Below, one piece after another: positions 3,372 through 39,818 of a stretch of 64,000 bases of DNA. Below the pieces are notes generated by a model. It saw nothing but the letters and a program-made list of their open reading frames with translations, ran no database searches and had not been told where the DNA came from. The stretch comes from Lysobacterales bacterium (GTDB lineage Bacteria > Pseudomonadota > Gammaproteobacteria > Xanthomonadales > SZUA-36). The stretch's first letter is position 1. Each line of letters starts with the position of its first letter. The stretch spans positions 15,947-79,946 of the forward strand of contig JANLTO010000017.1 in NCBI GenBank assembly GCA_031362985.1. Direction: 5' to 3'. The position numbers were made by a program, and so were the translations under genes.

Positions 3372-4556
3372 TCAGGGCGAGCGTGCGGCCAGTTTCGTGC
3401 CCGGCTTGGCCAACGCCAGCTCCCAGAAACGCGTCGTGAGGGAGCTGATGTTGTTACTTTCGACATTCATCAATACCACGATTCCGATGTTGTGGCTGGC
3501 CGACCAGGCGACATCCGCACGGTAACCGGACACCCAGCCGCTGTGATAGGCAATTTCCTCCTCACCCACCTGGTACACACGCCAACCGAGGCCGTAGTGT
3601 GCATCAGTGAGGATAGTCTTCCAATCCTTGTGCTGCAGGCTGCGCGGAGTTCTCACCCTTGGCTGCACCACCATGTTGATGACTTCCGGCGATATGACCA
3701 GCGGGTTTGCCCCCAGCTGCGCCATCACCCACTTGCTCATGTCGTCGATGCTGGCATTCACGCCGGCGGCGGGCGCCACGTTGTAGTAGTTGGGCCGCAC
3801 CTTCACGGTTATCCACGAACCCTTGTTTTTGACGTGGGGCTGCGCGCGGTTGTGACTGGCCATAAACGCATCAAAACCGACGGACGCGGTGTACATGTCC
3901 AGAGGTTTGAAAATGCGCTGTTGCAGCAGGTTGGCATAGGAGTTGGCGCTGACTTTTTCCACCACCGGCTGGATCAGGCTAAAGACGCTGTTCTGGTAGG
4001 AGTAGCAATCGCCGGGTGCGCAGGTCAGGGTCAGTTCCGCCATCCGTAGCTGGATTTCCGCGGCAGGCACGCCCTCTTCGAGCAGATTGTCATACGCATG
4101 GGAGACCAGCCCTGTGCTTTGTCCAAGAAGATTCTGGATTTGAATTTTGCTGGCATCGCCCTTGATGTGAAACGCCGGCAGGTACTCGGTAACCGGATCA
4201 TCCAATGACAGTATGCCTTCCTGCACCATCTGGGCTGTGAGCTCGGCGGCAAATGTTTTCGAAACCGAGGCGAGGCGGAATACGGTGTCGGTGTTGATAC
4301 GCTGCTTGCGGTTGGTATCGGTGAACCCCGCAATTCCCATGCGAATCACATGTTCCTTCGACACCACCGCGTAGGCGGCACCGAGAACCCTATCCTCTGT
4401 AACCTGCTGCCTGAACCAGCCTTCGAATTTATCGGCCAGTGCCTGCTGGGGGGAAGGCACGCCCGCTGCCAGGGCACTGGAGCAGGCCGGCAAGCAGCTG
4501 GCTATGGTTGTGGCTATCAAAGCCGCGAGGAAGGGAGCGAAATGTCTGTGTCTCAT
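3372..4556 (-). CDS. Serine hydrolase of the beta-lactamase / penicillin-binding fold (class C-like)
   Basis: 394-aa ORF with an N-terminal signal sequence. SxxK motif in LASVSKTF and YxN-like YSYQNS. Its ATG overlaps the stop of the upstream STAS gene (ATGA at 4553-4556). Confidence 0.85.
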   Translation of the reverse strand: MRHRHFAPFLAALIATTIASCLPACSSALAAGVPSPQQALADKFEGWFRQQVTEDRVLGAAYAVVSKEHVIRMGIAGFTDTNRKQRINTDTVFRLASVSKTFAAELTAQMVQEGILSLDDPVTEYLPAFHIKGDASKIQIQNLLGQSTGLVSHAYDNLLEEGVPAAEIQLRMAELTLTCAPGDCYSYQNSVFSLIQPVVEKVSANSYANLLQQRIFKPLDMYTASVGFDAFMASHNRAQPHVKNKGSWITVKVRPNYYNVAPAAGVNASIDDMSKWVMAQLGANPLVISPEVINMVVQPRVRTPRSLQHKDWKTILTDAHYGLGWRVYQVGEEEIAYHSGWVSGYRADVAWSASHNIGIVVLMNVESNNISSLTTRFWELALAKPGTKLAARSP

Positions 4557-4942
4557 GCTGTGGCTTCGCCGCGTGCAAGGAAGCTAACGGCGCTGCGAAC
4601 GGCCTCGCTGCGGCTATCGAACAATTCCGATTCACGCACCCGGTCGAGGATACCGAGGTGGCCTAGCAGTCGGGCAACAGGGAAAGTCATGCCGACTATG
4701 ATGACATGTTTGCGTTCATCTGCGGCCCGCTGTATCACTTCCCCCAATGCCAGCGCTGCGCTGCCGGCCACGCGCGGGACATCCAGCAGGCCGATGATCA
4801 GCACGCGGTAGTCGCCGATGGCGGCGAAGCGACGGGGCAACTCATTGAGACCTTCAGACAGGTCGCCGCGAAAATTCGCAAGCGAAAGGGTGTTGGGGCG
4901 TAACAACAACAGGTGATCAGCCATGCCGCAGATTATAGTCAT
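4553..4942 (-). CDS. Stand-alone STAS-domain protein (anti-sigma-antagonist / SulP C-terminal-like)
   Basis: 129-aa ORF. The pattern LDVPRVAGSAALALGEVIQRAADERKHVIIVGMTFPVARLLGHLGILDRV...LFDSRSEAV resembles STAS domains. Alternative ATG at 4924 (MADHLL). Confidence 0.55.
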   Translation of the reverse strand: MTIICGMADHLLLLRPNTLSLANFRGDLSEGLNELPRRFAAIGDYRVLIIGLLDVPRVAGSAALALGEVIQRAADERKHVIIVGMTFPVARLLGHLGILDRVRESELFDSRSEAVRSAVSFLARGEATA

Positions 4943-5015
4943 AGCCTGTCGAACTCAGCAAAGTATCCCGGGCGTTTTTCTGCCGGGCGGTTGATTCCAC
5001 GACTGATCTGCTATA

Positions 5016-8000
5016 TTGCCCAACCATCAAGATTACAAAGCCCGGCAACCTATGACAACAGCAGCGGGACAGGCAACAGGCCATCAGGGTCAACTTCTTG
5101 TCACCGTGATCGTTCCTGTGTTCAATGGAGGCTCGGACCTCGAAAAATGCCTGGCTGGAATTGCCGCCTCCACCTATCCGCCGATCGAGATCATCCTGGT
5201 CGATGATGGCTCCACCGACGGTATGACACAGGCTGTGGCAGCGCGCTATGGCGCCAGGATGATTCGACGTGAGCAGATGCAGGGGCCGGCCAGCGCACGC
5301 AATCTGGGCGCCGGTGAGGCCCGCGGCGACATCATTTTTTTCACGGATGCCGATGTTCGTCTCGATCCTGCAGCCATCTCCATTGCAGTGCAAACCCTGG
5401 ATGCCGATGCCGGATTGTGCGCCGTGTTTGGCAGTTACGATGATCAACCCGGACATGCATCTTTCCTTTCGCAGTACCGCAACCTGTTTCACCACTGGGT
5501 GCATCAAACGGGTAAAGCGGAGGCGTTTACTTTCTGGACTGGGTGCGGCGCCATCCGGCGCGAGGTGTTGTTGCAGGCGGGTGGTTTCAACGTGGACTAT
5601 AAACGCCCCAGCATCGAAGATATTGAACTGGGGGCACGGTTGCGCGCATCCGGAAACCGCATCCGGCTGGAAAAGACCATGCTCGGCCAGCATATGAAAC
5701 GCTGGACCTTCTGGAATATGCTCAAGACGGACATTTTCCACCGGGGTATACCGTGGATGGGGCTGGTACTGCGTGAGGGCCACGCGGCCAGTGATCTCAA
5801 CCTGAACCTCAGTTCCCGTTTTGCCACGTTCCTGGCCGGGCTGTTTGGCCTGTCCCTGCTGGTTTTCCCGTTCGCCGGACAGTTAGCGGCCCTTTGGCCC
5901 GCGCTGGCATTGCTGCTGGCCGGAGCGATTTGCGCGTGGCTCACTAACCCGTCTGGCAAGAGTTCCGGATCGGTGTTTTGCACAGCCCTGGCGATCTTGC
6001 TGCCCGCCGCTGCCTACGGGCTTGCGCCCAACCCCTGGGCCGCGGTGCCCCTGGCTATCATCCTTGCAATGATCTGGGCTCAACTGCCTTTTTATCGCTA
6101 CCTGGTGCAAAAGCGCAGCAGCGCGTTTGCCATCGCAGTGGTGCCCATGCAGGTGCTGTTTTTCCTCGGTTGTGTGGTTGCAGTTCCCTTCGGGATTGTC
6201 CTGCATCTGTTCAACCGCCCCCGGTGCGTAAAATTAATTTCGTTGACAGCTCTCGCTTTTGTCTTGCTCCCCGCCCGCCTCGCCGCGGCCCCGGGTGCTG
6301 CCCCGGGTACCGCTCCCGGCTTAGGCCCATCAACCATGTACTCAAGTGTGGCCCAGGTGCATCCGCAAGATGCAGCCATCCCGGCCACGGCAGAGTCCGA
6401 AGCCGGGGATGACGTGGTGTTCCAATTACCGCAGATCATCGTTGAGGGCAAAAAGCCCGAGGTACCGCCGTCCCTGATCGTGCGCAAGCTGGACATTGAG
6501 GACTTCGTCGCCACCAATTCCCATACCGTGGGCGAGGCGCTGACCTACGTGCCTGGGGTAAACGTTCAATATGGCGGAACTTCGGGTGATGCCCGGGCCT
6601 GGGTTCGCGGCTATCGGGACCGCGACGTACTGGTGCTATTTGACGGCATTCCAGTGGCATCCGGATTCGAGGGCACCATTGACCTTAATGAGATTGCGGT
6701 GCAACGGGTGGCGTCCATAGACGTGATCAAGAGTGCACCTTCGGTTATTTACGGCACTAACGCGGTGGGCGGTGTTATCTCCATTGTTCCTGCCGCCGGT
6801 GTTAGCGGATCTTTCCTCGATGGCACTTTGGAGCTGGGCGGCGATGATGAGCGGTTTGCTCACGCCAGCGGCGGAAGCGGCAACGGCAATGTCAGTTTCG
6901 CCCTGTCGGCACAGTACCAGTCGGCAGATGACTATTCCCTGTCGGATAACTACGAGCCCGAGGTCAGTCAACCGGAGGGTGACCGCATCAACAGCGACTA
7001 CGAGCGCAGCAGCCTGTTTTTTCAATTCGATGCCCTGGAATCGCCACTGGGGCACGCGTCTTTTTTTTACAACCTGGCCAATGCGCACAAGGGCCTGCCC
7101 ATTGAATCCGACATAGATGACCCGGATTATGAACGCCTGACGGAGTCAAAGCGGCAGACCATGGGCCTGTCTAACCAGTTTGGCGCGATACCGCTCGCGC
7201 TGAAGCTTTACTACAACTCCTACGACAGCGAACTGACTTCGTACACAGACCCCGATTACAGCTACATTGATGACGTGGAATCCAACGAGGACTACTCCTA
7301 CGGGGGCAATCTGTATTCCACGCTTGAGACATCGAACACCAATACCCTGATCCTCAGCACCGGTGCACAGACCGACGTGTTCACAGGCGCAGGCCAGTTG
7401 GAGGACGGCAACAAAGCCGAGCTGACCACCTACACTCTGGCGGCCGAAGACGAGTACTGGATCACGCAGAAACTGTCGCTGGCCGCGGGGGGAATTTTCG
7501 CTTACTTCGATCAAACGCAACTGAACCAGGCCAGCAGCAAATTCAACCCGCAAATCGCCCTGGGCTGGCAGGTCACACCGCGGGTGTCACTGCACGGCTC
7601 AATCGCACAACGCACCCGCTTCCCGAAACTGCGTGAATTGTACCGGCGGCGTTACGGTAACCCCGACCTCGATCCCCAGACTGCCGTTAATTCCGAGGTC
7701 GGCGTCCTGTTCCAGTACGGCAGGAGCTGGAGCACTGACCTTGCCCTGTTTCACAGCAACATTGACGGTTTGATTGAACGGGCAGACCGGCGTGCCCTGT
7801 ACACCAACTTCGAGCCCGTCACCATTGACGGCATCGAAACCGCAACCAGTGGCTGGATCAGCGATGCGTTCTTTACCCGCCTGGCTTATACCTACATCAA
7901 TGCGACTGAAGACCTGCCCGACGGCGGCAGCCGTCAACTGCGCAGCCGGCCGAAGCACACCGCGATTGCAGAGCTGCGTTATATTTTTCCAGCAGCAGTG

Positions 8001-8234
8001 ACCGTTTCCCTCAGCGGCATTTATGTCTCCGGACTGTACGACCTCGACCCCGACGGACTCTACACACGCCTACCTGGCTACTTTGTTGCCACGGCCAAGG
8101 CTATTTGGGAGTTTAGCGATCACTACGAAGCCTACCTGGCCTTGTCGAATGTCGGTGATGCCGACTACATGCAACGGCTGGGGGACCCGCGCGAAGGCCG
8201 CCGGCTGATGCTGGGTGTGAATTGCGGATTCTGA
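5016..8234 (+). CDS. Single open frame fusing a GT2 family membrane glycosyltransferase (nt 5016-6227) to a complete TonB-dependent outer-membrane receptor precursor (nt 6228-8234)
   Basis: - 1072 codons with no stop; TTG start.
- GT2 part: VTVIVPVFNGG, ILVDDGSTDG, FTDADV, GCGAIRREV, EDIELGARL, then hydrophobic helices.
- TBDR part: signal-like VKLISLTALAFVLLPARLAAA and TonB-box-like DDVVFQLPQIIVEG.
- Plug: TVGEALTYVPGVNVQYGGTSGDARAWVRGYRDRDVLVLFDGIPV.
- C-terminal ...RRLMLGVNCGF, ending in an aromatic residue. Confidence 0.8.
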   Translation: MPNHQDYKARQPMTTAAGQATGHQGQLLVTVIVPVFNGGSDLEKCLAGIAASTYPPIEIILVDDGSTDGMTQAVAARYGARMIRREQMQGPASARNLGAGEARGDIIFFTDADVRLDPAAISIAVQTLDADAGLCAVFGSYDDQPGHASFLSQYRNLFHHWVHQTGKAEAFTFWTGCGAIRREVLLQAGGFNVDYKRPSIEDIELGARLRASGNRIRLEKTMLGQHMKRWTFWNMLKTDIFHRGIPWMGLVLREGHAASDLNLNLSSRFATFLAGLFGLSLLVFPFAGQLAALWPALALLLAGAICAWLTNPSGKSSGSVFCTALAILLPAAAYGLAPNPWAAVPLAIILAMIWAQLPFYRYLVQKRSSAFAIAVVPMQVLFFLGCVVAVPFGIVLHLFNRPRCVKLISLTALAFVLLPARLAAAPGAAPGTAPGLGPSTMYSSVAQVHPQDAAIPATAESEAGDDVVFQLPQIIVEGKKPEVPPSLIVRKLDIEDFVATNSHTVGEALTYVPGVNVQYGGTSGDARAWVRGYRDRDVLVLFDGIPVASGFEGTIDLNEIAVQRVASIDVIKSAPSVIYGTNAVGGVISIVPAAGVSGSFLDGTLELGGDDERFAHASGGSGNGNVSFALSAQYQSADDYSLSDNYEPEVSQPEGDRINSDYERSSLFFQFDALESPLGHASFFYNLANAHKGLPIESDIDDPDYERLTESKRQTMGLSNQFGAIPLALKLYYNSYDSELTSYTDPDYSYIDDVESNEDYSYGGNLYSTLETSNTNTLILSTGAQTDVFTGAGQLEDGNKAELTTYTLAAEDEYWITQKLSLAAGGIFAYFDQTQLNQASSKFNPQIALGWQVTPRVSLHGSIAQRTRFPKLRELYRRRYGNPDLDPQTAVNSEVGVLFQYGRSWSTDLALFHSNIDGLIERADRRALYTNFEPVTIDGIETATSGWISDAFFTRLAYTYINATEDLPDGGSRQLRSRPKHTAIAELRYIFPAAVTVSLSGIYVSGLYDLDPDGLYTRLPGYFVATAKAIWEFSDHYEAYLALSNVGDADYMQRLGDPREGRRLMLGVNCGF

Positions 8235-9334
8235 TTTTGCTCCAGTTCCCGGGTCGACAGAATTTCTGCTTGCGCTGGGGCGTGTGCTTTGGCCTGGCCT
8301 TGCTCCTGACAACGTGCCCAATGCCCACGCTTCGGGCCAGTGATGCTTCCCCCGGATGTACGGCGCTTGCCGGCAAAACCATACGCTGGGTCGTACCGTC
8401 GCAGCCGGGTGGTGGATACGATGCCTATTCGCGCCTGCTGCAACCGTTCCTCGAACACTCGTTGGCAGCCCGTCTGCTGATCGAAAACCTGCACGATGCG
8501 GGTGGCATTGTTGCCGCCGTGACCATACGCGATGCTGCAGCGGATGGAACCACACTCGGCATCATCAATGCTTCCGGTTTGCTCGCGGCGCACGCAATTG
8601 AAGGTCAGCTTGCACCCGATCCCGCCACCGACTTCACTGTGCTTGGGCAGATTGCCAGTAACCACATGGTGGTGTTTGCCGGCCGGGATTCGGGCCTGAA
8701 GGACATCCATGACTTGCTGCGGGTGGCGCAATCCCGCCCCATTGTCGTGGGTGTGCGAGATGCGGGCTCCTCCGGTTTCTACGCAGTGCCGGTTCTCGCC
8801 GAACTGCTGGGCATGGAGTACGCGCTGGTCAGTGGCTATGTCGGCAGTCCGGCACGCACGCTGGCGGTGATGCGCGGCGAGATCGACATCTTCGCGGGCA
8901 ATTTCGACTCCGTGAGCGGGCAGGTAAAAGCGGGGGAACTCATCCCACTACTGCAGTTAACCGAATCGGCGGACAGCACGCTGCCACAACCACAACTTGG
9001 TGGCCCGGAAGGTATCGCAAGCCAGCGGGCCGCGGCCACGGGCCGAACACCGGCGCAAGCGGAGCAATTGGCCAATGACCTGGCTGCCATTGTTGGTGCG
9101 GGGCGTTTGGTGGTTGCTCCCGTGCAGCTGCCTCACCCCATTGCGACCTGCCTGGAAAATTCACTGGCCGAAATTCTGCAAAGTGCTGAGCTTGTGGCCG
9201 CCGCACAGCAGGCACAGTTGAGCATCGACTACCAGGACAGCTTGGCGGCTTACCGGGGCTTGCAGGCGGGCGCCCGGGGAGTGGAGCAGTTTCACGACCT
9301 GATCCAGGCCGCCATCGAACAGGCACGGGAGTAG
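8222..9334 (+). CDS. tctC: Tripartite tricarboxylate transporter substrate-binding protein (TctC/Bug family)
   Basis: 370-aa ORF with a signal sequence. Bug/TctC-type N-terminal core RWVVPSQPGGGYDAYSRLLQPFLE...AGGIVAA. Its TTG start overlaps the TBDR stop by 13 nt, so the start is uncertain. Confidence 0.8.
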   Translation: MRILILLQFPGRQNFCLRWGVCFGLALLLTTCPMPTLRASDASPGCTALAGKTIRWVVPSQPGGGYDAYSRLLQPFLEHSLAARLLIENLHDAGGIVAAVTIRDAAADGTTLGIINASGLLAAHAIEGQLAPDPATDFTVLGQIASNHMVVFAGRDSGLKDIHDLLRVAQSRPIVVGVRDAGSSGFYAVPVLAELLGMEYALVSGYVGSPARTLAVMRGEIDIFAGNFDSVSGQVKAGELIPLLQLTESADSTLPQPQLGGPEGIASQRAAATGRTPAQAEQLANDLAAIVGAGRLVVAPVQLPHPIATCLENSLAEILQSAELVAAAQQAQLSIDYQDSLAAYRGLQAGARGVEQFHDLIQAAIEQARE

Positions 9335-9344
9335 CCCCCGCGTT

Positions 9345-10862
9345 ATGGACATATCCGTGCTCTCCGCCGCCCAGGAAGGACTTGGCCTGGTGCTGTCCTG
9401 GCCGTATATCCTGTATCCGGTGGCCGGGACCTTGCTGGCGATGGTGTTTTCGGCCAGCCCGGGCTTGAACAGTTCCAGCCTGATGGCCCTGGCCATTCCG
9501 GTGACCTATGCCTGGGATCCACTGGCCGTGATGCTGCTGTTTGGCGCCTTCGTAGGCGGCGCCACCTTCATGGGTTCCATGACCGCCATCCTGTTCAACA
9601 TTCCGGGCAAGGCACAGAACGCGGTAACCTTGCTGGACGGCTATCCCATGACCGAGCAGGGCCGGGCAAAAACCGCTATCGGCTGCGCTGCGACTTCCTC
9701 CGCGCTGGGGTCGACGTTTGGTATTTTCTTCCTGATCGCGCTGATTCCATTGATGCGCCAGGCAGCTGTCGCGCTGGGGCCGCCGGAGTACCTGATGCTG
9801 GCCATCTGGGGGCTGACCATGCTGGCTGCCCTCACCGGGAATTCCCTGCTCAAGGGACTGGCTGCAGCCGGCATCGGTCTGTCGCTGGCGATGATTGGTT
9901 ACGACCCGCGCACGGCTGAATTGCGCCTTACCTTCGGCCTGGATTACCTGCGCGACGGTCTCAGCCTGGTGCCGGTATTCCTCGGGCTGTTCACCCTCGC
10001 CGAGGTGATCGACCTGATCGTCAGCGGTCGTGAAACGGTGTCGGGCCGGCTCAAAGCGCGAGCGCTTGGCGGCAGTGTCAGCGAGGGTGTGCGGTCGGTA
10101 TTCAGGCATTTTGGCCTGTTCCTGCGCAGTTCGATAATTGGCACCGTGATTGGCGCTGTTCCGGGTATTGGTAGCACGGTGGCGGGATTTATCGCCTACG
10201 GCCATGCCAGCCATTCAGCCCGTGACCGTTCACAGTTTGGTCGCGGCGACATCCGCGGAGTGCTGGCGCCGGAGGCCGCGATCGATGCCAAGGACGGGGG
10301 TGCGCTGATCCCGACCCTGGCTCTCGGCATACCTGGCGGTACCGGCACCGCGGTGTTGCTTGGCGCATTAACCCTGCATGGTCTTACACCGGGCCGTGAA
10401 ATGCTTACCACAAACCTGGTGCTGGTGTTCGTACTGATCTGGTCCTTGTTCCTTTCCAACTGGATCACTTCCTTGCTGGGCCTGGCCCTGGTCAACCCGA
10501 TGGCGCGCCTGAGCACCATCCGGACTGCGCGTCTGGTTCCCGTCATCCTGGTGCTGGCTGTGCTGGGGGCATTGCAATACCGGGGCCTGATAGCCGACGT
10601 GATCTGCGCAGCGCTTTTCGGACTGCTCGGTTACCTGATGAAGCGCCTGGACTGGTCACGGATTCCGCTGGTCATCGCCCTCTCCCTGGCGCCCCTGTTC
10701 GAAACCAACCTGCACCTTACCTTGCGGCTGCAGGAGCTTGGACGTATCGATTTCTGGTCGCGACCGGTGGTTCTCGTGCTGGTCGCGCTGACCGTCGTCA
10801 ACCTGATCCTGCCGGCCTTTCCCGGTCGCCTGCGGACCCTGCGTGGGAACCGCCAGCAGTGA
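9345..10862 (+). CDS. tctA: Tripartite tricarboxylate transporter large permease TctA
   Basis: 505-aa polytopic membrane protein. TctA-like N-terminus ...ILYPVAGTLLAMVFSASPGLNSSSLMALAIPVTY...FNIPGKAQNAVTLLDGYPMTEQGRA. Confidence 0.9.
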   Translation: MDISVLSAAQEGLGLVLSWPYILYPVAGTLLAMVFSASPGLNSSSLMALAIPVTYAWDPLAVMLLFGAFVGGATFMGSMTAILFNIPGKAQNAVTLLDGYPMTEQGRAKTAIGCAATSSALGSTFGIFFLIALIPLMRQAAVALGPPEYLMLAIWGLTMLAALTGNSLLKGLAAAGIGLSLAMIGYDPRTAELRLTFGLDYLRDGLSLVPVFLGLFTLAEVIDLIVSGRETVSGRLKARALGGSVSEGVRSVFRHFGLFLRSSIIGTVIGAVPGIGSTVAGFIAYGHASHSARDRSQFGRGDIRGVLAPEAAIDAKDGGALIPTLALGIPGGTGTAVLLGALTLHGLTPGREMLTTNLVLVFVLIWSLFLSNWITSLLGLALVNPMARLSTIRTARLVPVILVLAVLGALQYRGLIADVICAALFGLLGYLMKRLDWSRIPLVIALSLAPLFETNLHLTLRLQELGRIDFWSRPVVLVLVALTVVNLILPAFPGRLRTLRGNRQQ

Positions 10863-11347
10863 CCCCATTCACCAGGAAAACTGGCACAACACCCGCCTTC
10901 CCGCCACACAGTTGGCTGACCTTCGCATTTGCTGCAGGAGTTGCACTGATGCTGTGGGCTTCGTTCGGACTCAGCCGCGCTTCGTCCTGGGTTCCTCAAT
11001 GGGTGCTGGGAATCACCCTGCTTTTGCTCTTGCTGCAGCTGGTGGGTGAGTTGTTGGCTGCGCGCAGTGCCCTGGTACAGACGCAGCCACATGCGGTAGA
11101 CGACCGGCGCGGCCGTATCGTTGCGGCTGCCGCCTGGTTGAGCCTGTTGACGCTGCTTACCTGGCTGATTGGCACAGCTGCGGGCGGTGCATTGTTTTGC
11201 TACGTGTGGCTACGATGGCACGCGGGTGAACGCTGGCCCCTGGCAGTGGGGACTGCAGCCGGCCTGGGTATCGTATTGTGGGTGCTTTTCAGCCTGTTGT
11301 TCGGTGTCGGTCTTTATGCCGGCATTCTTTGGACCTGGTTAAACTGA
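10859..11347 (+). CDS. tctB: Tripartite tricarboxylate transporter small permease TctB-like
   Basis: 162 aa with four hydrophobic helices. Its start overlaps the tctA stop by 4 nt. The family call rests on size, topology and context. Confidence 0.65.
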   Translation: MTPFTRKTGTTPAFPPHSWLTFAFAAGVALMLWASFGLSRASSWVPQWVLGITLLLLLLQLVGELLAARSALVQTQPHAVDDRRGRIVAAAAWLSLLTLLTWLIGTAAGGALFCYVWLRWHAGERWPLAVGTAAGLGIVLWVLFSLLFGVGLYAGILWTWLN

Positions 11348-11485
11348 TTTCCGGGCCCGTGGGCTTTGCCCCGCGATGGTGCCCCACTGGCTTTCAGGCG
11401 CGCCGGGAAAAGCTCGCGATGACCGGCGACGGCCAGGAAAAATATCGGGTCGCGAGTAACCAGCAGTCGAAATTTCAGAATTCGC

Positions 11486-12781
11486 TCACGCTGCGCGGCG
11501 CCCAATCGCTTCGAGCAGGACGCGGCAGATGCGCACCAGCGGCGGCACCGGATCGGAAAACCAGCCGCGGTTGAGAGGACTGGTCACACGCGGGGTGTGG
11601 CCGAAATATTCCGCCTTGAAGGAGCGCAGCAGCTGTGGAATTGAGTCCTCAGTGAAAGGCTTTGCGACACCTGCGCTGCGTTTGAAACGGGTGCGCAGCC
11701 AGGTCTTGCCCTGGTCCAAAATCTGGCCAAGCAGGTGCAGGGCGTCCCACAAGGGATCCAGCAGCAACACGCCTTCGGGAAACGACGGTATCTCACCCGC
11801 ATCCTTACCCTGCGCGAGGCGCAGGAGGATCAGGGGTTCATTGATACCGAGTTCTGTCCGGTACCAGAGGTTGTGACCAAAGCGCGGGTTGATTTCCATC
11901 AGCTTGGGGATACCATCACGCTGATCAACCAGGGTTTGCACGGTCATACCCCCCCAGACGCCAAGCTGCCGCACCAGTGCGTGTACCTCCGCGGCGTATG
12001 GAACGTCGTTCGTGGTCTCAGCGGCGGCGCTGGGGGTGCGCACTCCAACCCGCCGAACCCGATGAACCCGGGGCGAAAACAAGGACACGATTTCAAACTC
12101 GGGACTGACCAGCAGGTAGTAGTTGCGCTTGGTCAGAGCCGGCACGTATTCCTGCAGCAGGGGCCTGGGCTGGATGGCGCTGAGATCTTCGTATGCCGCT
12201 TCGAGTTCTGCCAGGTCACTCGCCCACCGGATGTTCGCGCCGTGTGCATTACAACGCGGTTTGAGCACCCACGGAGACACCATGCCGGCAGCGGCGGCCA
12301 GCACATCCTCACGGCTTGAAACCACGTGGGTCAATGGCATGGGAAAGCCGACCGTTTCGGCGGCTTGCAGGGTCAGGCTCTTGTCCAGGATGCGTGTCAG
12401 CGCAGCATAAGCAGGCACCACCGTGACAATGCCCTGGCTGGCAAAGCGTGCCTTGTTCTTGGCGAAAACAAAAACCTCCGCGTCGTAGGAGGGAAAGATG
12501 GTGTCAATTTCCTCCATGGCACAGATCTCTTCGATGCGCCTGATATAAGCCTCTTCATGCGCTGTGTTTTCTTCTTCGATACGCCCGGCGCGCCAGTCGG
12601 CGGAGCAATCGGGCACGGTATAGCGCTTGCTGACGTGCCGGGACCAGGCAGAAATGCCTGCCCAACGCTGCAACACATTGCCCTGGTCCACCGTGATCAC
12701 GATCCGGTCAGCCACGTGACGCAAACAGCGCAGGATCAGGTAAGGCTGTTCCTCCCGGGTATTGGTGATCAGCACCTTCAT
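11486..12781 (-). CDS. ATP-grasp domain ligase (carboxylate-amine ligase type)
   Basis: 431 aa. Motifs PWVLKPRCNAHGANIRW, LLQEYVP, MEINPRFGHNLWYRTELGINEPL are typical of the ATP-grasp fold. The start overlaps the deacetylase stop (12778-12781). Confidence 0.8.
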   Translation of the reverse strand: MKVLITNTREEQPYLILRCLRHVADRIVITVDQGNVLQRWAGISAWSRHVSKRYTVPDCSADWRAGRIEEENTAHEEAYIRRIEEICAMEEIDTIFPSYDAEVFVFAKNKARFASQGIVTVVPAYAALTRILDKSLTLQAAETVGFPMPLTHVVSSREDVLAAAAGMVSPWVLKPRCNAHGANIRWASDLAELEAAYEDLSAIQPRPLLQEYVPALTKRNYYLLVSPEFEIVSLFSPRVHRVRRVGVRTPSAAAETTNDVPYAAEVHALVRQLGVWGGMTVQTLVDQRDGIPKLMEINPRFGHNLWYRTELGINEPLILLRLAQGKDAGEIPSFPEGVLLLDPLWDALHLLGQILDQGKTWLRTRFKRSAGVAKPFTEDSIPQLLRSFKAEYFGHTPRVTSPLNRGWFSDPVPPLVRICRVLLEAIGRRAA

Positions 12782-13620
12782 GGTTTACCGGCTCTGTCTG
12801 GTATGAAGCCTGCTTTGCCCGCCACCCGTTTTACATCGCGCAGATACTGACGCCACTGCAGCCAGGCTGTAAGCCCGCCATCGAGCAGCTTGAGGAAGCG
12901 CTGCGGCCGTTGCAGGTAATATGCATCAATGCGAGGAAGTTGCAGCATATCCGGTTGCACGGAACAGTGGCCCAGTCGGGCAGTGCAGGCACGCCGGTAA
13001 TACCGGGCGGCAAGGTCGCATACTGCGGCATCACAGTGCCCGTAAGGGTAGGCCAGTGCATCTGCCCGCGCTTGCAGGCGCTGCTCCAGCAATTCCCGGG
13101 ACTGGACCAGTTCCTGCTCAAGCACATCCGGCGATAAGCGGGTCAGGTCAGGATGGTTGAGTGTGTGGGAGCCAATTTCAAAACCTGCACGCACCCAGGC
13201 CTCAGCCTGCTGCCAGTTGAGCAGGTCGCGGTCGAAGTCCGGGTGTACCGCCCGCGCCTGTGAACCACTCATTCCCATCATCCCGGTGACCAGGAATACG
13301 GTGGCGCTGAAGCCCTGCACCGCCAGCACCGGCAGAGCCTGTTCCAACACGCTGAGATAACCGTCGTCGAAGGTCAGAACAATTGCGTTCGGCGGATAGC
13401 AACCGCTGTGATCGAAATGATCAAAAGCCTGTGCCAGGCTGATGCCGACAATACCGTGAGCTGCGAGCGACTCCATTTGCCAGCGGAACACCTGCGGTGA
13501 AATTGAGATAGTAGATGAACAATGATCAATCGCGTGGTAGGTCAGTACCGGCAAGGTGCCATCACTGTTCACTTGCAGCCTTCTCCAGTTCCCTGTTCCA
13601 CTCGGCCCGCACTTCTTCAT
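12778..13620 (-). CDS. Polysaccharide deacetylase (NodB homology domain)
   Basis: Track ORF 12778..13752. Motifs LPVLTYHAIDH, IVLTFDDGYLSV, ATVFLVTG, IGSHTLNHPDL. The longest ORF overlaps the upstream gene by 190 nt. Plausible starts are ATG 13620 or GTG 13572. Confidence 0.8.
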   Translation of the reverse strand: MKKCGPSGTGNWRRLQVNSDGTLPVLTYHAIDHCSSTISISPQVFRWQMESLAAHGIVGISLAQAFDHFDHSGCYPPNAIVLTFDDGYLSVLEQALPVLAVQGFSATVFLVTGMMGMSGSQARAVHPDFDRDLLNWQQAEAWVRAGFEIGSHTLNHPDLTRLSPDVLEQELVQSRELLEQRLQARADALAYPYGHCDAAVCDLAARYYRRACTARLGHCSVQPDMLQLPRIDAYYLQRPQRFLKLLDGGLTAWLQWRQYLRDVKRVAGKAGFIPDRAGKP

Positions 13621-14710
13621 TGTCCAGTTCCAGCTGGTCGCTGAAGCGCAAACCGATGTTCCTGACCAGAGCTGGCGCATTGATTGCCAGGTGACGAGCA
13701 GGTGTCGAGCCGGTGTTAAGGTGCTGGTGATACCAGTAAGTGGGCGGCACAAAAAGCGTGCCGGCTTTCCAGTCCACCCGCACGCGATCGTGATACGCGC
13801 CCTCGGGCCAGGTCACAGAAAAACCTTCACCTGACAGCAGCAGAATGAATGCATCGCTGGAATGCCGGTGCGCCTTCATGAACATCTTCGGCGGGATCTC
13901 CGAGACATGCAGGCTCAGCATGCTGTTGCCGGCCATCAGCCAGCGCATGGTTTCAGTGCCTTCACCGCGATAGTCGTACGGGTGGGTATCAATACTCTGA
14001 ATGTCCTCGACAAAATTGGCTGAGACCGCCCGGTCGCCGGCACTCTTTGTACGCCGGAAGTAGTCGGGTGCGCCATCGTAACGGTCGGAAAAGACGAAGG
14101 GATTTTCGGTGATAAATTCCTCACTGCGTATGACGTTCAACACAAACGGGAAGCTGGTGACCATCAGCATCCGGGCTGGCTGATCCCCTGTGCTGTAATG
14201 CTGATGGCGAACATTCAGGGGCACTGACAACAGGTCCCCCTGGTTCCACGCGACACGCTGCTCCTGTTCGCCTTCCTGTTGCATGATCGTGTAGCCGCTG
14301 CCACTGATGAAGTAGACACCTGTCTCATAAACGTGGCGCTGACTTGCAGTCATTCCCCGGGTCGGAATTTCGAGTACGCGGCCATCGATGATCTGGTAGT
14401 CGGCAAAGCGCAAGTACAGACCAGTGACGCCTTCGCCCATTTGCGGCCAGGGCCGCAACGCGATGGTGGCAACGTCATCGATCTCCAGCCCTTCAAACAT
14501 GGGCACCTCCAGCCGTGCCTGCTTTAACCAGGTTTCATAAGGCGAATCGGTCGGGGGTTCACGAACCACCGTTGGGCCCAGTACTTCCACGCCTTTCACG
14601 TAGGCGAACAACCCGAAAAACGCCCTGCGGGCAAGGCCGGTGTGCAGCAACAGCACCGCGACCAGCACCAATGCACCAAGAGCAGCAAGAATTTTCAGAC
14701 CTTTGGCCAC
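13562..14710 (-). CDS. Membrane-anchored bicupin protein
   Basis: 382 aa with an N-terminal TM helix (ILAALGALVLVAVLLL). Two cupin barrels. The second carries HxH...H metal-type motifs: KAHRHSSDAFILLLSGEG and YWYHQHLNTG. Confidence 0.7.
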   Translation of the reverse strand: MAKGLKILAALGALVLVAVLLLHTGLARRAFFGLFAYVKGVEVLGPTVVREPPTDSPYETWLKQARLEVPMFEGLEIDDVATIALRPWPQMGEGVTGLYLRFADYQIIDGRVLEIPTRGMTASQRHVYETGVYFISGSGYTIMQQEGEQEQRVAWNQGDLLSVPLNVRHQHYSTGDQPARMLMVTSFPFVLNVIRSEEFITENPFVFSDRYDGAPDYFRRTKSAGDRAVSANFVEDIQSIDTHPYDYRGEGTETMRWLMAGNSMLSLHVSEIPPKMFMKAHRHSSDAFILLLSGEGFSVTWPEGAYHDRVRVDWKAGTLFVPPTYWYHQHLNTGSTPARHLAINAPALVRNIGLRFSDQLELDNEEVRAEWNRELEKAASEQ

Positions 14711-14843: not shown

Positions 14844-15680
14844 ATGGTAATTGCCAGGAGCTGCCAGCGGGTCAAACGCCTGACCCCTCGCACCGTGGCG
14901 CATGTGCTTTACGGCAGAATAAAACCGCGCAAAGCGCCGCTGCTGGAGGGTCACTTCACCTCGATTTGGGGAAGATGGGCGCATGTGAACTATTACCACT
15001 GGCTGATCGATTGCCTGCCACTGCTTGCGCGCCTGGACGGAATCGCTGACTCGCCGCCGATCACCTTGCTGATGCCCCAATCCATGCCACCCGCCTGGGA
15101 GGACTCCCTCGCCTGTTGCCTGCCTTCCGGCATGGCTGTTCAACGTGCCACCGGCTGGGTACGGCCGCAGCATTTTCTATTCATCTCCCCGGGTCATCTT
15201 GGTTGGGCAGCATGGCTGACACCTGGTGGGCGGGACTACGTGCGCGGCAAAGTATTCGAACGATTCGGACTCGACGCCAACAGGAAACCGAGCCGGCGCA
15301 TTTTTGTTTCGCGCTCCAGGGCGGCAGTGCGGCGTTTGCTCAACGAGGACGAAGCGGGCCATGTGATGGCTAGATTTGGATTTGAAACCGTCCACCTGGA
15401 AGGACTGAGCTTCGAGCAGCAGGTACGGCTGTTTCACGACGCGGAATTCGTCGCCGGGGTACATGGCGCGGCATTTGCCAACCTGCTGTTCGCGGGCCGT
15501 ACGAAAGTACTGGAACTGTTCGCTTGTGATGCATTCAGGCCATTGTATTTTTTCCTGGCTCGTTCCTTGGGTCTGGATCACGAGATTCTGCTGGGCAGCG
15601 GGGAAAACCGCCTGGAAGATTTCAGCATCGCGGTATCTGACCTGGAAAGAACCGTGGAAAAAATGCTTCTCAAGGACTGA
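14844..15680 (+). CDS. Glycosyltransferase family 61 / DUF563 protein
   Basis: 278 aa. The NYYHWLIDCLPLLARL motif is characteristic of DUF563/GT61. C-terminal GVHGAAFANLLF. The N-terminus looks short for the family, so the start is uncertain. Confidence 0.65.
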   Translation: MVIARSCQRVKRLTPRTVAHVLYGRIKPRKAPLLEGHFTSIWGRWAHVNYYHWLIDCLPLLARLDGIADSPPITLLMPQSMPPAWEDSLACCLPSGMAVQRATGWVRPQHFLFISPGHLGWAAWLTPGGRDYVRGKVFERFGLDANRKPSRRIFVSRSRAAVRRLLNEDEAGHVMARFGFETVHLEGLSFEQQVRLFHDAEFVAGVHGAAFANLLFAGRTKVLELFACDAFRPLYFFLARSLGLDHEILLGSGENRLEDFSIAVSDLERTVEKMLLKD

Positions 15681-25843: not shown

Positions 25844-27057
25844 ACCCCATGCCCCGGCCCATACTCCTTCGAGCGCTCCCGCACAAACTCCTGCACGATG
25901 CTGCGTAGCTGCCGCATGAACTGTTCCTCGGTGAAGTCCAGCATGCGCGCTGCCAGCACTTGCCGCAGTCGTGACTGCAACTCGTCGCTTTCAAGCGCAC
26001 AGCAAATGCGCTCGACCGCCTGATCGTCGGAACCATACATCAGCCCGGGCTCATTTCCGATGATTTCAACCTGCCCGCCGTTACCCGGCACGAAGACCAG
26101 GCAACCGGCGCGGACCAATTCTGCCACGGCAATACCGAAATGCTCATCCAGCATGGTATGCAAGCCGTAACGGCAGGCCCCCACCCGTTGTTCAAGTTCA
26201 TTGCGGCTGATGCCATGGTGCAATCGCACCCAGGGCCCTGCTGCCTGTGCGCGTTCACGCAGCAGGTATGCGTACGCCGGGTCCTGGATATCGCCGATAA
26301 TTTCCAGGCGGACGTCAAGGCCGCGCCGGCGCACTCGTTCAATAATGTCTATAGCTTCAAGCTGTCGTTTCCCCGGCTCAATGCGGCCCAGCGAGACAAA
26401 GGAGTGTTTGCGCTGTTCCCAGGCAACGGGGGGCGCTGACCAGCCCACCGGTGGGTGCAACACCTGGGCTTGTACGCCGTAAATGCTTCCCACGAGACTG
26501 GCAGTCCAATGCGAATTCACCAGCGTCAGGTTGCGCACTATACGCTCGAAGGAAATTCCCGATGAAAGCATCCATGGCCGGTACTGTCCCCTAAAAAATG
26601 CGCCCAGGCGCCCGGCGGGCGATAGGCGACGCACGGCATCGACCCGTTCCCGGTGCCTGGCCAAGTATGGATAATGCACATACTGGATACCCGGTCGGCC
26701 AAAATCCATTTCATTGTCAACCGCCATCGTGACGTCGAATTCTCCGCCCGTCTGGCGCGCTTTGCGCATCAGCCACGCAGCACGCTGAAAGCTGTGCTGG
26801 TCTGGATCAATGCGGTGGCTGTGCCGCACCAGCCAGGGTATTTGTACAAAGCGGAAGTCGCGTTCCTCCAGGCTGGTGCCAAAGTGCCGGTTCAATGCCG
26901 CAAAGTTCGGTCGCCGGGCACACAGTACGGTTACGTCCCAATCCTGCCGCAGGCCCTGTAGTGCCCATGCGCCGACACATTGCCCCCCACCCGGCGGATT
27001 CAGATTGACCGAACAAAAAAGCAACTTACCCCTGGTGCCGGGGCCGACTGCGGTCAC
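25840..27057 (-). CDS. Glycosyltransferase family 4 (GT-B)
   Basis: 405 aa. C-terminal EHFGIAVAELVRAGCLVFV (E-x7-E region). Overlaps both neighbours by 4 nt. Confidence 0.8.
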   Translation of the reverse strand: MTAVGPGTRGKLLFCSVNLNPPGGGQCVGAWALQGLRQDWDVTVLCARRPNFAALNRHFGTSLEERDFRFVQIPWLVRHSHRIDPDQHSFQRAAWLMRKARQTGGEFDVTMAVDNEMDFGRPGIQYVHYPYLARHRERVDAVRRLSPAGRLGAFFRGQYRPWMLSSGISFERIVRNLTLVNSHWTASLVGSIYGVQAQVLHPPVGWSAPPVAWEQRKHSFVSLGRIEPGKRQLEAIDIIERVRRRGLDVRLEIIGDIQDPAYAYLLRERAQAAGPWVRLHHGISRNELEQRVGACRYGLHTMLDEHFGIAVAELVRAGCLVFVPGNGGQVEIIGNEPGLMYGSDDQAVERICCALESDELQSRLRQVLAARMLDFTEEQFMRQLRSIVQEFVRERSKEYGPGHGV

Positions 27058-29351
27058 TGTGTTCTTCCCGGGCCGGCAGGGTATTTCCCCAATAATCTGT
27101 CTTTAAGAAAGCTGAGTACGCCAAGCGCAAGGCCTACGGCGCTATAGCAGTACTGCAGCCAGATCATCGGGACGGCACGAAGCGCAAACCAGGCACCCCG
27201 CGATCGCCACAGGAATGTAAGAAACTGAGCATTGAGTAGCACGAGCACCAGCAGCAGTCCCGCTTCTGCGGCCACCACGGAATCATGCAGCAGCGGCGCA
27301 AGGAACATCAGGCCGACCGTCACCATACTCGTGATGTTGTTGGTGCGCAGATTAAGATCGCGGTGAAATATCCGGCGTTGCAGCATGATTTTCGTCCAGG
27401 GAATTGCGCGCTGGAACACATCTGCGCGCACCAGGCTGGCCAGGGTGTAACGTTTGGTGTGGGTTAGCTGGATTGCAGAGCTTAGTAAAATGCGGTGCCC
27501 CGCCTGGTGCAGGCGATAGCCCAGCTCGACGTCTTCCATTGCCCGGTAGCGCTCGTCGAATCCGCCCGCCTGGGTGAAAACTTCCCGCCTGATGGCGCCA
27601 TAGCCGCCGCAGAAGGTTGCAGCTTCCCGTCCCGAAACCTGGTGGGTATAGTGGTGCAACAGGTTTTTATACTGGGATGCAAAGTTCTGCGCCGGCGTGT
27701 CGTCCTGGTAGGAACAAAAGGTGGCTGCCACATCAGGCTGCTGCGTAAACACATGCATGATCCGGTCCAGTGTATCGGGCTCAATGAGCACATCGGCGTC
27801 GAGAAAAAACAACAGTTCCGCCTGCGCCAGTTGCACGCCACGGTTGCGCGCCGTGGCCGCACCACGATTTCGATCGAGCCGCACAAAGCGGCCACAGCGC
27901 TCCCGCGCGATTTGGTCGCTGCCATCAGTGGAGTGGTCATCAACGACTATAAGTTCGTAATCGGTCAGATGCGAGCGCTGCAGTGCGTCCAGGCATTGGC
28001 CCAGGGATCCGATCGCGTTGTACACGGGGATGATGACCGACACACGCGGCAGCGCAGATACTGCAGTGCCGGGTTCACGCAATTCCGGCTCAGCGCCAGC
28101 CGGGACTATGCGGCCGTAGGCATCCAGCAAGCCTTGCACCACCAGGTTCCAGTCATAGCTGCTTGCCACGGTTTGCCGCGCGGTATTTACCATGCTGCGC
28201 CAGCTTTCCCGGTTGTCCAGTAAATGCAGGATCTGCCGGGCAAAATCTCCAGGCTCATCGGCAATGAACAGGTCCTTACCCTCTTTCAGTACCAGGCCCT
28301 CGCAGCCCACGCGGCTTGACACCACCGGTCGGCCCAGCGCCATGGCTTCAAGTATTTTCAGGCGCGAGCCGCCGCCACTGCGCAGCGGTGCAATGGCCAC
28401 GTGTGCGCGCTGGTAAAAGGGTGTGAGGTCATCCACCCGGTCGGTGATTTCCACCTGCCCAGGTTGTGCCAGGTGCGCAAGAAATTTCTGCCCGCCCGAG
28501 CCAATTATGGTCAGGCGGCAGCGAGGGCGTTGACGCTGCACCAGCGGCAGTACGTCGCGGCAAAATGTCTGCATGGCATCGCGGTTGGGCAGGTAACCCA
28601 TGGTACCGACGAATACCAGTTCGCCACCGCTTGTAGCATCACTGGCCGCAGCATCTGACCAGGGTTCGGGCAGGGGCAAGAGCTGCGTGCAGTCCACTCC
28701 GTTCTGGACAATGCTGATTCGCCCCGCCAATGGTTTTGCTGCATTGACGTCAAGGTTCCGGGCAAGGTTTTCCAGCCGGGCGCGGTCCTGTGCGGATACC
28801 ACGATCGAAAGGTCAAACTGTCGTGCAACCCGCGCCTCCCAACCCCGCAACGACAGCCATTTCAGCGCGGCAGGCACTCGCCCCGCACCCGAACTCATGT
28901 CCAGCATGCTGCGGTACTGCTGCGCCCCGATGTTGTGCAATGACAGCACGCAAGCCCCACGAAAGCCGGGCGCCAGATCCGCGCGATATGGCGCCAGGAA
29001 AGAGTGCTCGATTTGCACAATATCAAAGGCCTGCTCCGCCGTAAGCTGCCTGATGCGTCGGGCCAGTGCGGGGTAATAAAAAGGCGTGGTTGCACAAGGC
29101 CGACCAGCTGGCAGGCCGCGCACTGCCATGCCTAATGTTGCCAGCCAGCTTCGATCAGCAACAACGCCATCGACATGCCGGCAATACGCCCGCATCGACT
29201 GCATGTGTTCTTTCTCTGCGGGAAATTCCAGCAGAGAGAGGACTGACACCTCGTGCTGCTGCGCCACGCGCGATATCAGGTTGAAATCCCGGATTCTCGC
29301 GCCACTGCATGGTGGGACCGGCAGACCGTAGGTAATGAACAGGATTTTCAC
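27054..29351 (-). CDS. Bifunctional GT4 (N-terminal) - GT2 with multi-TM tail (C-terminal) glycosyltransferase
   Basis: 765 aa. N-terminal half: MKILFITYGLPVPPCSGARIRDFNL...GGGSRLKILEAMALGRPVV. C-terminal half: VSVIIPVYNA...LIVVDDHSTDG...FLDADV...GYGAIRREV...EDVELGYRL, followed by hydrophobic helices. The C-terminal half aligns along its whole length with residues ~25-400 of ORF 5016..8234. Confidence 0.85.
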   Translation of the reverse strand: MKILFITYGLPVPPCSGARIRDFNLISRVAQQHEVSVLSLLEFPAEKEHMQSMRAYCRHVDGVVADRSWLATLGMAVRGLPAGRPCATTPFYYPALARRIRQLTAEQAFDIVQIEHSFLAPYRADLAPGFRGACVLSLHNIGAQQYRSMLDMSSGAGRVPAALKWLSLRGWEARVARQFDLSIVVSAQDRARLENLARNLDVNAAKPLAGRISIVQNGVDCTQLLPLPEPWSDAAASDATSGGELVFVGTMGYLPNRDAMQTFCRDVLPLVQRQRPRCRLTIIGSGGQKFLAHLAQPGQVEITDRVDDLTPFYQRAHVAIAPLRSGGGSRLKILEAMALGRPVVSSRVGCEGLVLKEGKDLFIADEPGDFARQILHLLDNRESWRSMVNTARQTVASSYDWNLVVQGLLDAYGRIVPAGAEPELREPGTAVSALPRVSVIIPVYNAIGSLGQCLDALQRSHLTDYELIVVDDHSTDGSDQIARERCGRFVRLDRNRGAATARNRGVQLAQAELLFFLDADVLIEPDTLDRIMHVFTQQPDVAATFCSYQDDTPAQNFASQYKNLLHHYTHQVSGREAATFCGGYGAIRREVFTQAGGFDERYRAMEDVELGYRLHQAGHRILLSSAIQLTHTKRYTLASLVRADVFQRAIPWTKIMLQRRIFHRDLNLRTNNITSMVTVGLMFLAPLLHDSVVAAEAGLLLVLVLLNAQFLTFLWRSRGAWFALRAVPMIWLQYCYSAVGLALGVLSFLKDRLLGKYPAGPGRTQ

Positions 29352-29393: not shown

Positions 29394-30200
29394 TCAGGCA
29401 TCACGATGGAGGACCTCAAAATTTGGCATTCCGTGGCAGCGGTAACCCATCTCATGCGCCATGATGCCAAGGCCTTCGGTTTCGATCTCTCCGCGATAGT
29501 CACCACGCCAGGCGCGCAGGAAATCGAAACGGGAGTGGCACTGGTTATCCTGTCGCACACGGGCAATCGGGCGGCCGAGAAAAAAAGTGGGGAAAATCAA
29601 GCCCTCGCGATGGATGTCAGCGCGCACCAGCAGCACCGTGCCACCCACCGTGTCGAGCTCCACCAGGTCACCTTCCTGGCGCATGCCATCCATGTGCAGC
29701 CTGCCATGATCGCGCCAGGCATTGCAGTCGAACGTGGGCCCACCATATTCCTTCACGCAGTGTGGCTGAACTATGTCCTTGCCGGTTGCGAGCACGCGCT
29801 GAATCAGGTCTGGCGGGTATTCAATGATGTCGACGTCGAGCCACAACACCCAATCATGTTCCTGTAAGGCGTTAAACAACAGGAAATTTCGACTCTTGGC
29901 CAGCACGCAGCGACGGTTTTTCTGTATGCTTCGGTCCCAGCGCTTCTTGCCCGTTGGAAGCTGGAAGTCAAAATCCCTTTTCCATATACGCGCAGAGGCA
30001 AAATGGCCGGCACACGCATGCAATTCAGCCTGAAATTTTTCAAACGTGCCGTCGGTGCTGTCACTTTCCAGCAATCCCACGGACAAGAGCTCGCGCGGGT
30101 AGTCCAGGCTGCGCAAACCCGCAAAATAGCTCTTCAGGCACGTGCTGGCGTTTTTTACCGGGGTGAGGATAAGAATTTTCGCTTGAGCAACCATTGGCAA
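29394..30200 (-). CDS. GT-A glycosyltransferase resembling the fungal Anp1/Mnn9/Van1 (GT62) mannosyltransferase family
   Basis: 268 aa. ILILTPVKNASTCLKSYFAGLRSLDYPRELLSVGLLESDSTDGT and WVLWLDVDIIEYPPDLI recall the Anp1 family signature. This is from memory and not searched. Confidence 0.5.
   Translation of the reverse strand: MPMVAQAKILILTPVKNASTCLKSYFAGLRSLDYPRELLSVGLLESDSTDGTFEKFQAELHACAGHFASARIWKRDFDFQLPTGKKRWDRSIQKNRRCVLAKSRNFLLFNALQEHDWVLWLDVDIIEYPPDLIQRVLATGKDIVQPHCVKEYGGPTFDCNAWRDHGRLHMDGMRQEGDLVELDTVGGTVLLVRADIHREGLIFPTFFLGRPIARVRQDNQCHSRFDFLRAWRGDYRGEIETEGLGIMAHEMGYRCHGMPNFEVLHRDA

Positions 30201-35318: not shown

Positions 35319-39818
<4,500 letters not shown>

Follow-up and report, generated by a model that had tools for sequence, protein, structure and literature searches.

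How can a single reading frame give both an inner-membrane enzyme and an outer-membrane receptor? The question is raised by an open reading frame (ORF) in a stretch of 64,000 nucleotides (nt) from contig JANLTO010000017.1 of a Lysobacterales bacterium, here called the window, in which a family 2 glycosyltransferase (GT2) runs without a stop codon into a TonB-dependent receptor (TBDR). The original prediction, made from the letters alone, left three answers: a new processed or trans-envelope architecture, internal initiation of the receptor inside the GT2 gene, or a very recent loss of the GT2 stop codon, possibly an assembly error. The fused ORF is an adjacent-gene fusion, real but ordinary and lineage-specific. 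As a singleton made by a simple deletion, it is neither a new architecture nor a new protein family. New is the presence of a GT2 and a TBDR in one polypeptide, which was found in no other protein searched; both halves belong to families already known. The explanation preferred as a whole, to which we give somewhat more than an even chance, is that a deletion of ~89 nt fused two coupled genes and that the receptor is exported and then cleaved off.

The fused reading frame and its two halves

The ORF extends from 5016 to 8234 on the forward strand and comprises 1072 codons, starting from a TTG, without any internal stop. The ORF list, the translation and the Pfam matches all agree with the earlier claim of one uninterrupted frame in which a GT2 is followed by a complete TBDR. 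On a second assembly (see below), the gene caller chose ATG 5052, which yields a product of 1060 amino acids (aa). ATG 5052 is the likely start and TTG 5016 an upstream alternative. Pfam positions are given here in the 1072-codon numbering, Phe387 and Asn388 in the 1060-aa numbering. Profile searches place both halves well above the cut-offs: Glycos_transf_2 (PF00535) matches residues 30-185 (E = 2.7e-28, 99.4 bits vs 23.3), PF13641 reaches residue 234 (54.1 bits vs 27), Plug (PF07715) covers residues 492-587 (E = 4.2e-21, 75.9 bits vs 23.9) and TonB_dep_Rec_b-barrel (PF00593) residues 685-1046 (E = 1.6e-32, 114.4 bits vs 27). NCBIfam models support both halves as well.

By its predicted fold, the GT2 part is an ordinary member of its family, a cellulose-synthase-like membrane GT2. 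It shares 74-81% identity with stand-alone GT2 proteins of 390-416 aa, and its 120 best homologs are without exception stand-alone (349-422 aa; the closest 81% identical). In an alignment of 114 sequences, D51, D52 and D56 of the GT-A acidic motif (DD...D.D) are invariant and D99 and D101 nearly so. The AlphaFold model built on this alignment has a mean pLDDT of 87.9 and a pTM of 0.83, with helices predicted at residues 253-274, 278-297, 307-324, 328-343, 345-354 and 357-388. The top Foldseek matches are PcManGT (6yv7), BcsA (4p00) and hyaluronan synthases (E ~1e-11), at TM-scores of only 0.4-0.5 that leave the topology of the tail unsettled. The last hydrophobic helix of the family (in the region of residues 253-388, window 5808..6215, and in homologs P0124-P0235) is ~30 residues long and has lysine or arginine (K/R) on both flanks. 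F359 and C374 are invariant in it, and P365, F370 and F371 are conserved.

The receptor part is, as judged from its sequence, a complete and ordinary TBDR that is 84-88% identical to stand-alone TBDRs of 675-684 aa. The features ascribed to it earlier were all found on reading: signal-peptide-like VKLISLTALAFVLLPARLAAA that begins at nt 6228, a linker, a TonB box and the terminal ...GVNCGF with its C-terminal aromatic residue (Phe). In the AlphaFold model, pLDDT falls below 50 from residue 419 onward, which is the linker region; ortholog receptors have an equivalent linker of 40-45 aa between cleavage site and TonB box. The TonB-box-like DDVVFQLPQIIVEG is kept in orthologs (...EDDVVFQ in locus L036, ...GDDVVFQLPQIIVE in locus L037). 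Over plug and barrel (residues 488-1068), the best NCBIfam model is that of the vitamin B12 receptor BtuB (TIGR01779/NF007926). In spite of this resemblance, the receptor is not a BtuB equivalog, since its scores are far below the equivalog cut-offs (143.1 vs 599.7 for TIGR01779, 102.7 vs 836 for NF007926). The receptor lacks an ATG or GTG start of its own and the complete n-region of a Sec signal peptide. In this clade, receptors start with a long signal-peptide n-region, carry a conserved Cys right before the hydrophobic core and have a low-complexity linker of 40-45 residues.

Origin of the fusion

The orthologous set comprises six distinct loci from uncultured Gammaproteobacteria: L002 (the same contig as L005, CAWARM010000015.1 of the metagenome-assembled genome MFD02979.bin.1.82), L021, L036, L037, L003 and L004. 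All six have the gene order GT2, TBDR, TctC, TctA, TctB. In each of them, GT2 and receptor are separate genes in differing frames, and the stop and restart that the window lacks are present. In L002, L021 and L036, the GT2 stop and the receptor start overlap in ATGA, as is classic for translationally coupled genes. In L003 and L004, a gap of 10 nt separates the two genes. In L037 the gap amounts to 35 nt and follows an earlier GT2 stop. At a greater distance (GT2 identity of at most 66%), the homologs lack such a receptor downstream.

The size of the loss was determined as the distance between a conserved His codon of the GT2 (window 6204) and a conserved Cys codon of the receptor (window 6225). 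This distance is 21 nt in the window, 110 nt in L002, L021, L036 and L037, 109 nt in L004 and 118 nt in L003. The net loss in the window is 88-89 nt, about 89, and the absent block is also visible in the DNA alignment with the orthologs. As it is not a multiple of three, the loss put two out-of-register frames in register. Lost with this block were the last 12-19 residues of the GT2 and its stop, the region for ribosome binding, the start codon of the receptor and the greater part of its signal-peptide n-region. The breakpoint is probably located just after Phe387 (TTC, 6210..6212), with T/CTC microhomology. Its exact position can only be deduced because the nearest relatives are ~80-86% identical in DNA. 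Behind it, AAC CGC CCC CGG TGC (N-R-P-R-C) of the window is similar to CTC AAC GGC CCA TGC (L-N-G-P-C) of the orthologs.

Among the three earlier readings, recent loss of the stop is thus the closest. The GT2 stop is indeed missing, but it is only one of the elements lost with the ~89 nt. The statement that the paralogous GT2 in 27054..29351 terminates was correct: it ends 16 residues after its last hydrophobic helix. Otherwise, the two-gene GT2/TBDR/TctCAB operons such as that on CAWARM010000015.1 correspond to the window in gene order and in the identities given above for both halves. Their receptors share the signal core, the linker, the TonB-box region and the C-terminal Phe with the window receptor. 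They differ in that the GT2 has its own tail and stop and the receptor its own ATG or GTG and a long n-region.

Two observations concern individual orthologs. In L037 (188..260), the GT2 ends (…PSPAK*) earlier than in its close relative L036, which indicates that the junction region is evolutionarily plastic. In L003 (7262..9347), the receptor is broken into three ORFs and the TctC region is fragmented too; for this reason, L003 seems to be an error-prone, noisy assembly.

Among 5.8 billion protein clusters, the fused product forms one of its own, a singleton that is present in NCBI (a contig of 144,882 bp) and in Logan. Among the best 120 full-length matches, the fused protein itself is the sole case of a GT2 joined to plug and barrel. 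The next-best full-length matches are stand-alone receptors of 682 and 675 aa with 87-88% identity. The exact 41-nt junction string had zero matches in JGI metagenome contigs. When GTDB species genomes and JGI metagenomes were scanned for relatives with the fusion, only two-gene loci turned up, the closest with ~80-86% nt identity.

A sequence seen once could also stem from a faulty assembly or consensus, or from a deletion allele carried by a minority of the sampled population. The source is a metagenome-assembled genome, and the sole corroborating contig (Logan, SRR20217213) is 100% identical to window 4265..14234, i.e. over 9,970 nt. With this identity, the contig possibly derives from the same reads and controls for the assembler only. 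Nevertheless, two different assemblers arrived at the same sequence, and the loss of 89 nt of unique sequence is atypical for an error of a de Bruijn graph. A run of five C is located at the junction (6217-6221), and one base fewer would end the GT2 at TAA 6229-6231. Such a homopolymer error would give back the GT2 stop, yet ~89 nt and the receptor start would still be missing. As a full explanation it was therefore ruled out. Altogether, we give an artefact or minority allele a small chance; assembly error is an unlikely cause of the fusion, and the deletion is very probably real. Within window 6216..6231, the +1 frame after the C run reads GGT GCG TAA, and a +1 shift at CCC-C would end the GT2 as ...NRPGA*, three codons on. 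The stop in this frame is probably coincidental.

Selection on the two halves was assessed by pairwise ratios of nonsynonymous to synonymous substitution rates (dN/dS). Between window and orthologs, dN/dS amounts to 0.14-0.16 for the GT2 and 0.147-0.157 for the receptor, compared to 0.125-0.157 in ortholog-ortholog controls. Zero stops occur in the 668 receptor codons compared, and neither half shows relaxed selection. This means that purifying selection acted on the receptor along most of the window's own branch, if not all of it. Judged from these sequences, the fusion would be either recent or tolerated.

Topology of the GT2 C-terminus

Whether the receptor can be exported depends on the side of the inner membrane on which the junction lies. 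Across the 120 stand-alone homologs, K/R in the loops alternate as predicted for a protein with a cytoplasmic N-terminus: they are abundant before helix 1 and in loops 299-307 and 349-356, and absent from the tight turns 276-279 and 326-328. K/R are frequent in the tail behind the last hydrophobic stretch, too (~2.5 per protein). Since the last helix has K/R-rich flanks on both sides, hydropathy and positive-inside analysis alone are ambiguous.

Natural fusions served as topology reporters. C-terminal fusion partners are numerous in this GT2 family (P0177, P0200, P0208, P0165, P0126, P0235, P0124, P0135 and others). Twenty-one homologs match the entire GT2 including its tail and carry a C-terminal extension. 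Five of them have an obligately cytoplasmic enzyme after the last helix without any intervening hydrophobic segment: a cytochrome P450, a polyprenyl synthetase, a Leu/Phe-tRNA protein transferase, a GFO/IDH/MocA oxidoreductase and a carbamoyltransferase fragment. In a second class, which recurs in many clusters, the GT2 is followed by a GT-C enzyme (PMT_2, often with TPR). Here, exactly one transmembrane (TM) helix lies between the tail and the D-E/D-D motif. In ArnT/PMT-type GT-C enzymes, this motif sits in the first extracytoplasmic loop. The third class is represented by P0235, in which a Wzx-type flippase starts ~20 residues past the GT2 tail. Flippases of this type have a cytoplasmic N-terminus. 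All three classes argue for a cytoplasmic GT2 C-terminus, which matches the positive tail, and against the last conserved hydrophobic helix as a simple fifth span. From these comparisons, a cytoplasmic C-terminus is more likely, and the last helix may be membrane-embedded without spanning.

In the natural fusions (GT2-GT-C/PMT_2-TPR, GT2-Wzx, GT2-P450), the same GT2 with its tail is followed by the next module after 10-25 residues. In the GT-C and Wzx fusions, the added module opens with an N-in/C-out TM helix, like the signal core retained in the window. The GT-C fusions indicate that the GT2 family tolerates an added TM helix right after its tail. The fusions differ from the window ORF in their partners, which are inner-membrane or cytoplasmic proteins; no other outer-membrane barrel partner is found among the best 120 matches. 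The GT-C fusions also suggest a lipid-linked sugar, consumed on the periplasmic side, as the product of this GT2 family.

Fate of the receptor

What is left of the receptor signal peptide resembles that of the orthologs. The retained end of the n-region, NRPRCVK, has three positive charges and the conserved Cys and aligns with ortholog ends ...NDPCWK, ...SQCLN and ...LRKCAP. Three K/R precede the core in the window and 3-5 in the orthologs. The core LISLTALAFVLLPA consists of 14 uncharged residues, compared to 13-23 in ortholog cores. It is followed by RLAAA, which aligns with VMA|G, AVA|D, IMA|D, LLA|D and AAAA|D of the orthologs and offers a small-residue (-3,-1) site. Candidate cuts of signal peptidase I are LAA|A and AAA|P. 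Pro at position +1 blocks this enzyme. Consequently, LAA|A, one residue earlier, would be the likelier cut.

The preferred sequence of events can be outlined as follows. A lineage-specific deletion of ~89 nt joined adjacent, translationally coupled GT2 and TBDR genes. In the fused protein, the entire GT2 would substitute for the n-region of the signal peptide. Because the GT2 C-terminus is most likely cytoplasmic, the retained core could enter the membrane in the N-in/C-out orientation of a regular signal peptide. The receptor part would be exported by Sec and cut off by signal peptidase I at LAA|A. What results would be a mature receptor of the normal kind and a GT2 that carries an additional membrane helix at its C-terminus. 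Provided that the deletion is real, we put export plus cleavage, as read from the sequence, at an even chance or slightly better. The topological problem seen in a covalent link between inner-membrane enzyme and outer-membrane barrel does hinge on the side of the junction. It is smaller than feared, since signal core and cleavage region are retained and follow a probably cytoplasmic, K/R-rich junction.

A similar case is FbcH of Bradyrhizobium japonicum, a cytochrome b/c1 precursor that is reportedly split at an internal signal peptide. There, too, one polypeptide is said to combine a polytopic inner-membrane protein with a downstream signal-like core and a cleavage site of small residues. By contrast, FbcH is reportedly conserved and its cleavage experimentally shown, whereas the window fusion is a singleton with a putative cut. 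In addition, the partner released in the window would need to continue to the outer membrane. A literature search on the FbcH case and on internal bacterial signal peptides returned nothing usable.

Could the receptor instead be initiated within the GT2 gene, e.g. at TTG 6243, ATT 6237 or GTG 6174, so that two proteins are made and the GT2 carries a read-through extension only part of the time? Near-cognate and alternative in-frame start codons are present, the AT-rich GTAAAATTAATTT that directly precedes TTG 6243 probably lacks structure, and the ancestral layout used translational coupling (ATGA) and not a strong Shine-Dalgarno sequence. However, the earlier conclusion that there is no clean restart was borne out. 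Between the junction and ATG 6336, only ATT 6237, TTG 6243 and TTG 6264 are in-frame candidate starts; a GGAG-type Shine-Dalgarno sequence was seen upstream of none of them, and none of the candidates has a Shine-Dalgarno-like motif ahead of it. A scan of 4500..8600 gave no promoter-like site. A start at TTG 6243 would yield a signal peptide without a positive n-region, and in the absence of a stop codon, ribosomes translating the GT2 would run through and occlude the site. Internal initiation, one of the three original readings, thus finds no support in the sequence scans and is very improbable. Around the fused ORF, three terminator-like matches were found, which is under the shuffle expectation.

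Several observations weigh against export and cleavage. In the AlphaFold prediction, the interface helix is followed by a series of five helices that ends in a continuous helix of 32 residues (357-388). Should all five be membrane spans, the GT2 would end in the periplasm, and the core would be misoriented for signal peptidase. All five fusions with cytoplasmic enzymes are themselves singletons. Pro follows AAA directly, and a cut one residue earlier would have Leu at -3. On a Hessa-type scale, the core reaches a summed hydrophobicity of +2.3, similar to the +2.1 of GT2 TM3, so that it could act as an uncleaved anchor; the argument that the core is too weak for stop-transfer was dropped for this reason. 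The fusion is shared by no relative, which means that selection has not visibly tested it, and it could be very recent and deleterious. Finally, the identical second contig may share its reads with the window and is compatible with read-level heterogeneity or error.

Some of these points would fit a real but disabling deletion. In that case, the receptor would be an uncleaved or misfolded appendage of the GT2 that is degraded or retained in the inner membrane, the GT2 itself might be compromised, and the locus would represent a very young, pseudogene-like lesion. Such a lesion would agree with a fusion absent from the six orthologous loci and the best database matches, with the lack of a canonical restart, with a possible periplasmic junction behind five helices and with the Pro after AAA; a very recent inactivation would be invisible to dN/dS. 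On the other hand, both halves are intact with a dN/dS of 0.15. Signal core, flanking charges and cleavage region are kept and ortholog-like, and the three classes of natural fusions give a cytoplasmic junction, the orientation that export requires. We consider a disabling deletion rather unlikely.

Without cleavage, the ORF could also encode a functional trans-envelope protein, in which the core and a disordered linker of ~50-65 residues before the TonB box tether the inner-membrane GT2 to the outer-membrane barrel. This is conceivable because a TBDR plug has its N-terminus in the periplasm and a linker of this kind could in principle bridge a large part of that compartment. Such a protein, which we regard as barely credible, would covalently couple an inner-membrane glycosyltransferase to an outer-membrane gate. 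Of the new processed or trans-envelope architecture proposed originally, the processed outcome is plausible and preferred; a conserved architecture is not supported, as the fusion is a singleton.

If the receptor is exported and cut, the locus would be a natural case in which coupled envelope genes fused easily and without harm. It would imply that a signal peptide tolerates the exchange of its n-region for a whole polytopic membrane protein and would provide a test case for the processing of internal signal peptides by Sec and signal peptidase I in Gram-negatives. If the fusion protein is not processed, the ORF would be a fresh loss-of-function lesion in a metagenome-assembled genome. The lesson would then be to compare unusual domain architectures seen once with orthologous loci before reading anything into them.

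Genomic context and side observations

The coordinates of the features are compiled in Table 1.

Table 1. Features of the fused ORF, its neighbourhood and the orthologous signal/linker regions (positions in the window unless a locus is named).
Feature	Position	Strand	Basis
GT2 part, Met1-Phe387 (1060-aa numbering)	5052..6212	+	PF00535, 74-81% identity to stand-alone GT2s
GT2 catalytic GT-A domain	~5103..5570	+	
GT2 membrane helices	~5808..6215	+	
Putative deletion junction, TTC (Phe387) / AAC (Asn388)	6212..6213	+	~89 nt absent compared with orthologs
Remnant of TBDR signal-peptide n-region, NRPRCVK	6213..6233	+	alignment with ortholog signal peptides
Signal-peptide hydrophobic core LISLTALAFVLLPA	6234..6275	+	hydropathy peak at residues 397-410
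Signal-peptide c-region RLAAA, candidate signal peptidase I site	6276..6290	+	alignment with orthologs
Low-complexity Ala/Pro/Gly/Ser linker, mature TBDR N-terminus	6291..6407	+	sequence reading
TonB-box-like segment DDVVFQLPQIIVEG	6408..6449	+	sequence reading, conserved in orthologs
TBDR plug domain	6489..6776	+	PF07715
TBDR beta-barrel (Pfam match)	7068..8153	+	PF00593
Terminal Phe	8229..8231	+	protein end ...GVNCGF
Stop	8232..8234	+	
TctC-TctA-TctB genes, conserved operon	8237..11100 (end approximate)	+	Pfam TctC, TctA; TctB by gene calls
1499-aa ORF	35319..39818	+	
Receptor signal/linker region, window	6225..6407		
Receptor signal/linker region, L002	7185..7310		
Receptor signal/linker region, L036	3240..3360		
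Receptor signal/linker region, L037	259..370		
Receptor signal/linker region, L004	1992..2100		

The fused ORF is surrounded by normal chromosomal genes. Upstream, amidohydrolase and beta-lactamase-family genes are found, as in the orthologous loci. Downstream of TctCAB, genes for an ATP-grasp protein, a polysaccharide deacetylase, a cupin and a glycosyltransferase follow and, further on, a polysaccharide locus of the ABC-transporter type (ABC2_membrane and ABC_tran) that contains a GT4-GT2 paralog. In the GT2-TBDR-TctCAB operon (window 5052..11100), the pairing of a TBDR and a tripartite tricarboxylate transporter with a membrane GT2 is unusual. This conserved operon is possibly a more interesting biological lead than the fusion.

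The paralog in 27054..29351 on the reverse strand is a two-domain GT4-GT2 fusion of 765 aa. Its GT2 tail has kept the first, the fourth and the last helix, and equivalents of helices 2 and 3 are absent. A 623-aa ORF on the same strand (31836..33707) has no Pfam match at E <= 1e-5. A Glyco_transf_61 match is located at 14844..15680 on the forward strand. Finally, a 268-aa ORF at 29394..30200 on the reverse strand matches Pfam Anp1 (PF03452; E = 4.2e-52). This family is known mainly from subunits of the yeast Golgi mannan polymerase, and its occurrence in a gammaproteobacterial polysaccharide locus is unusual.

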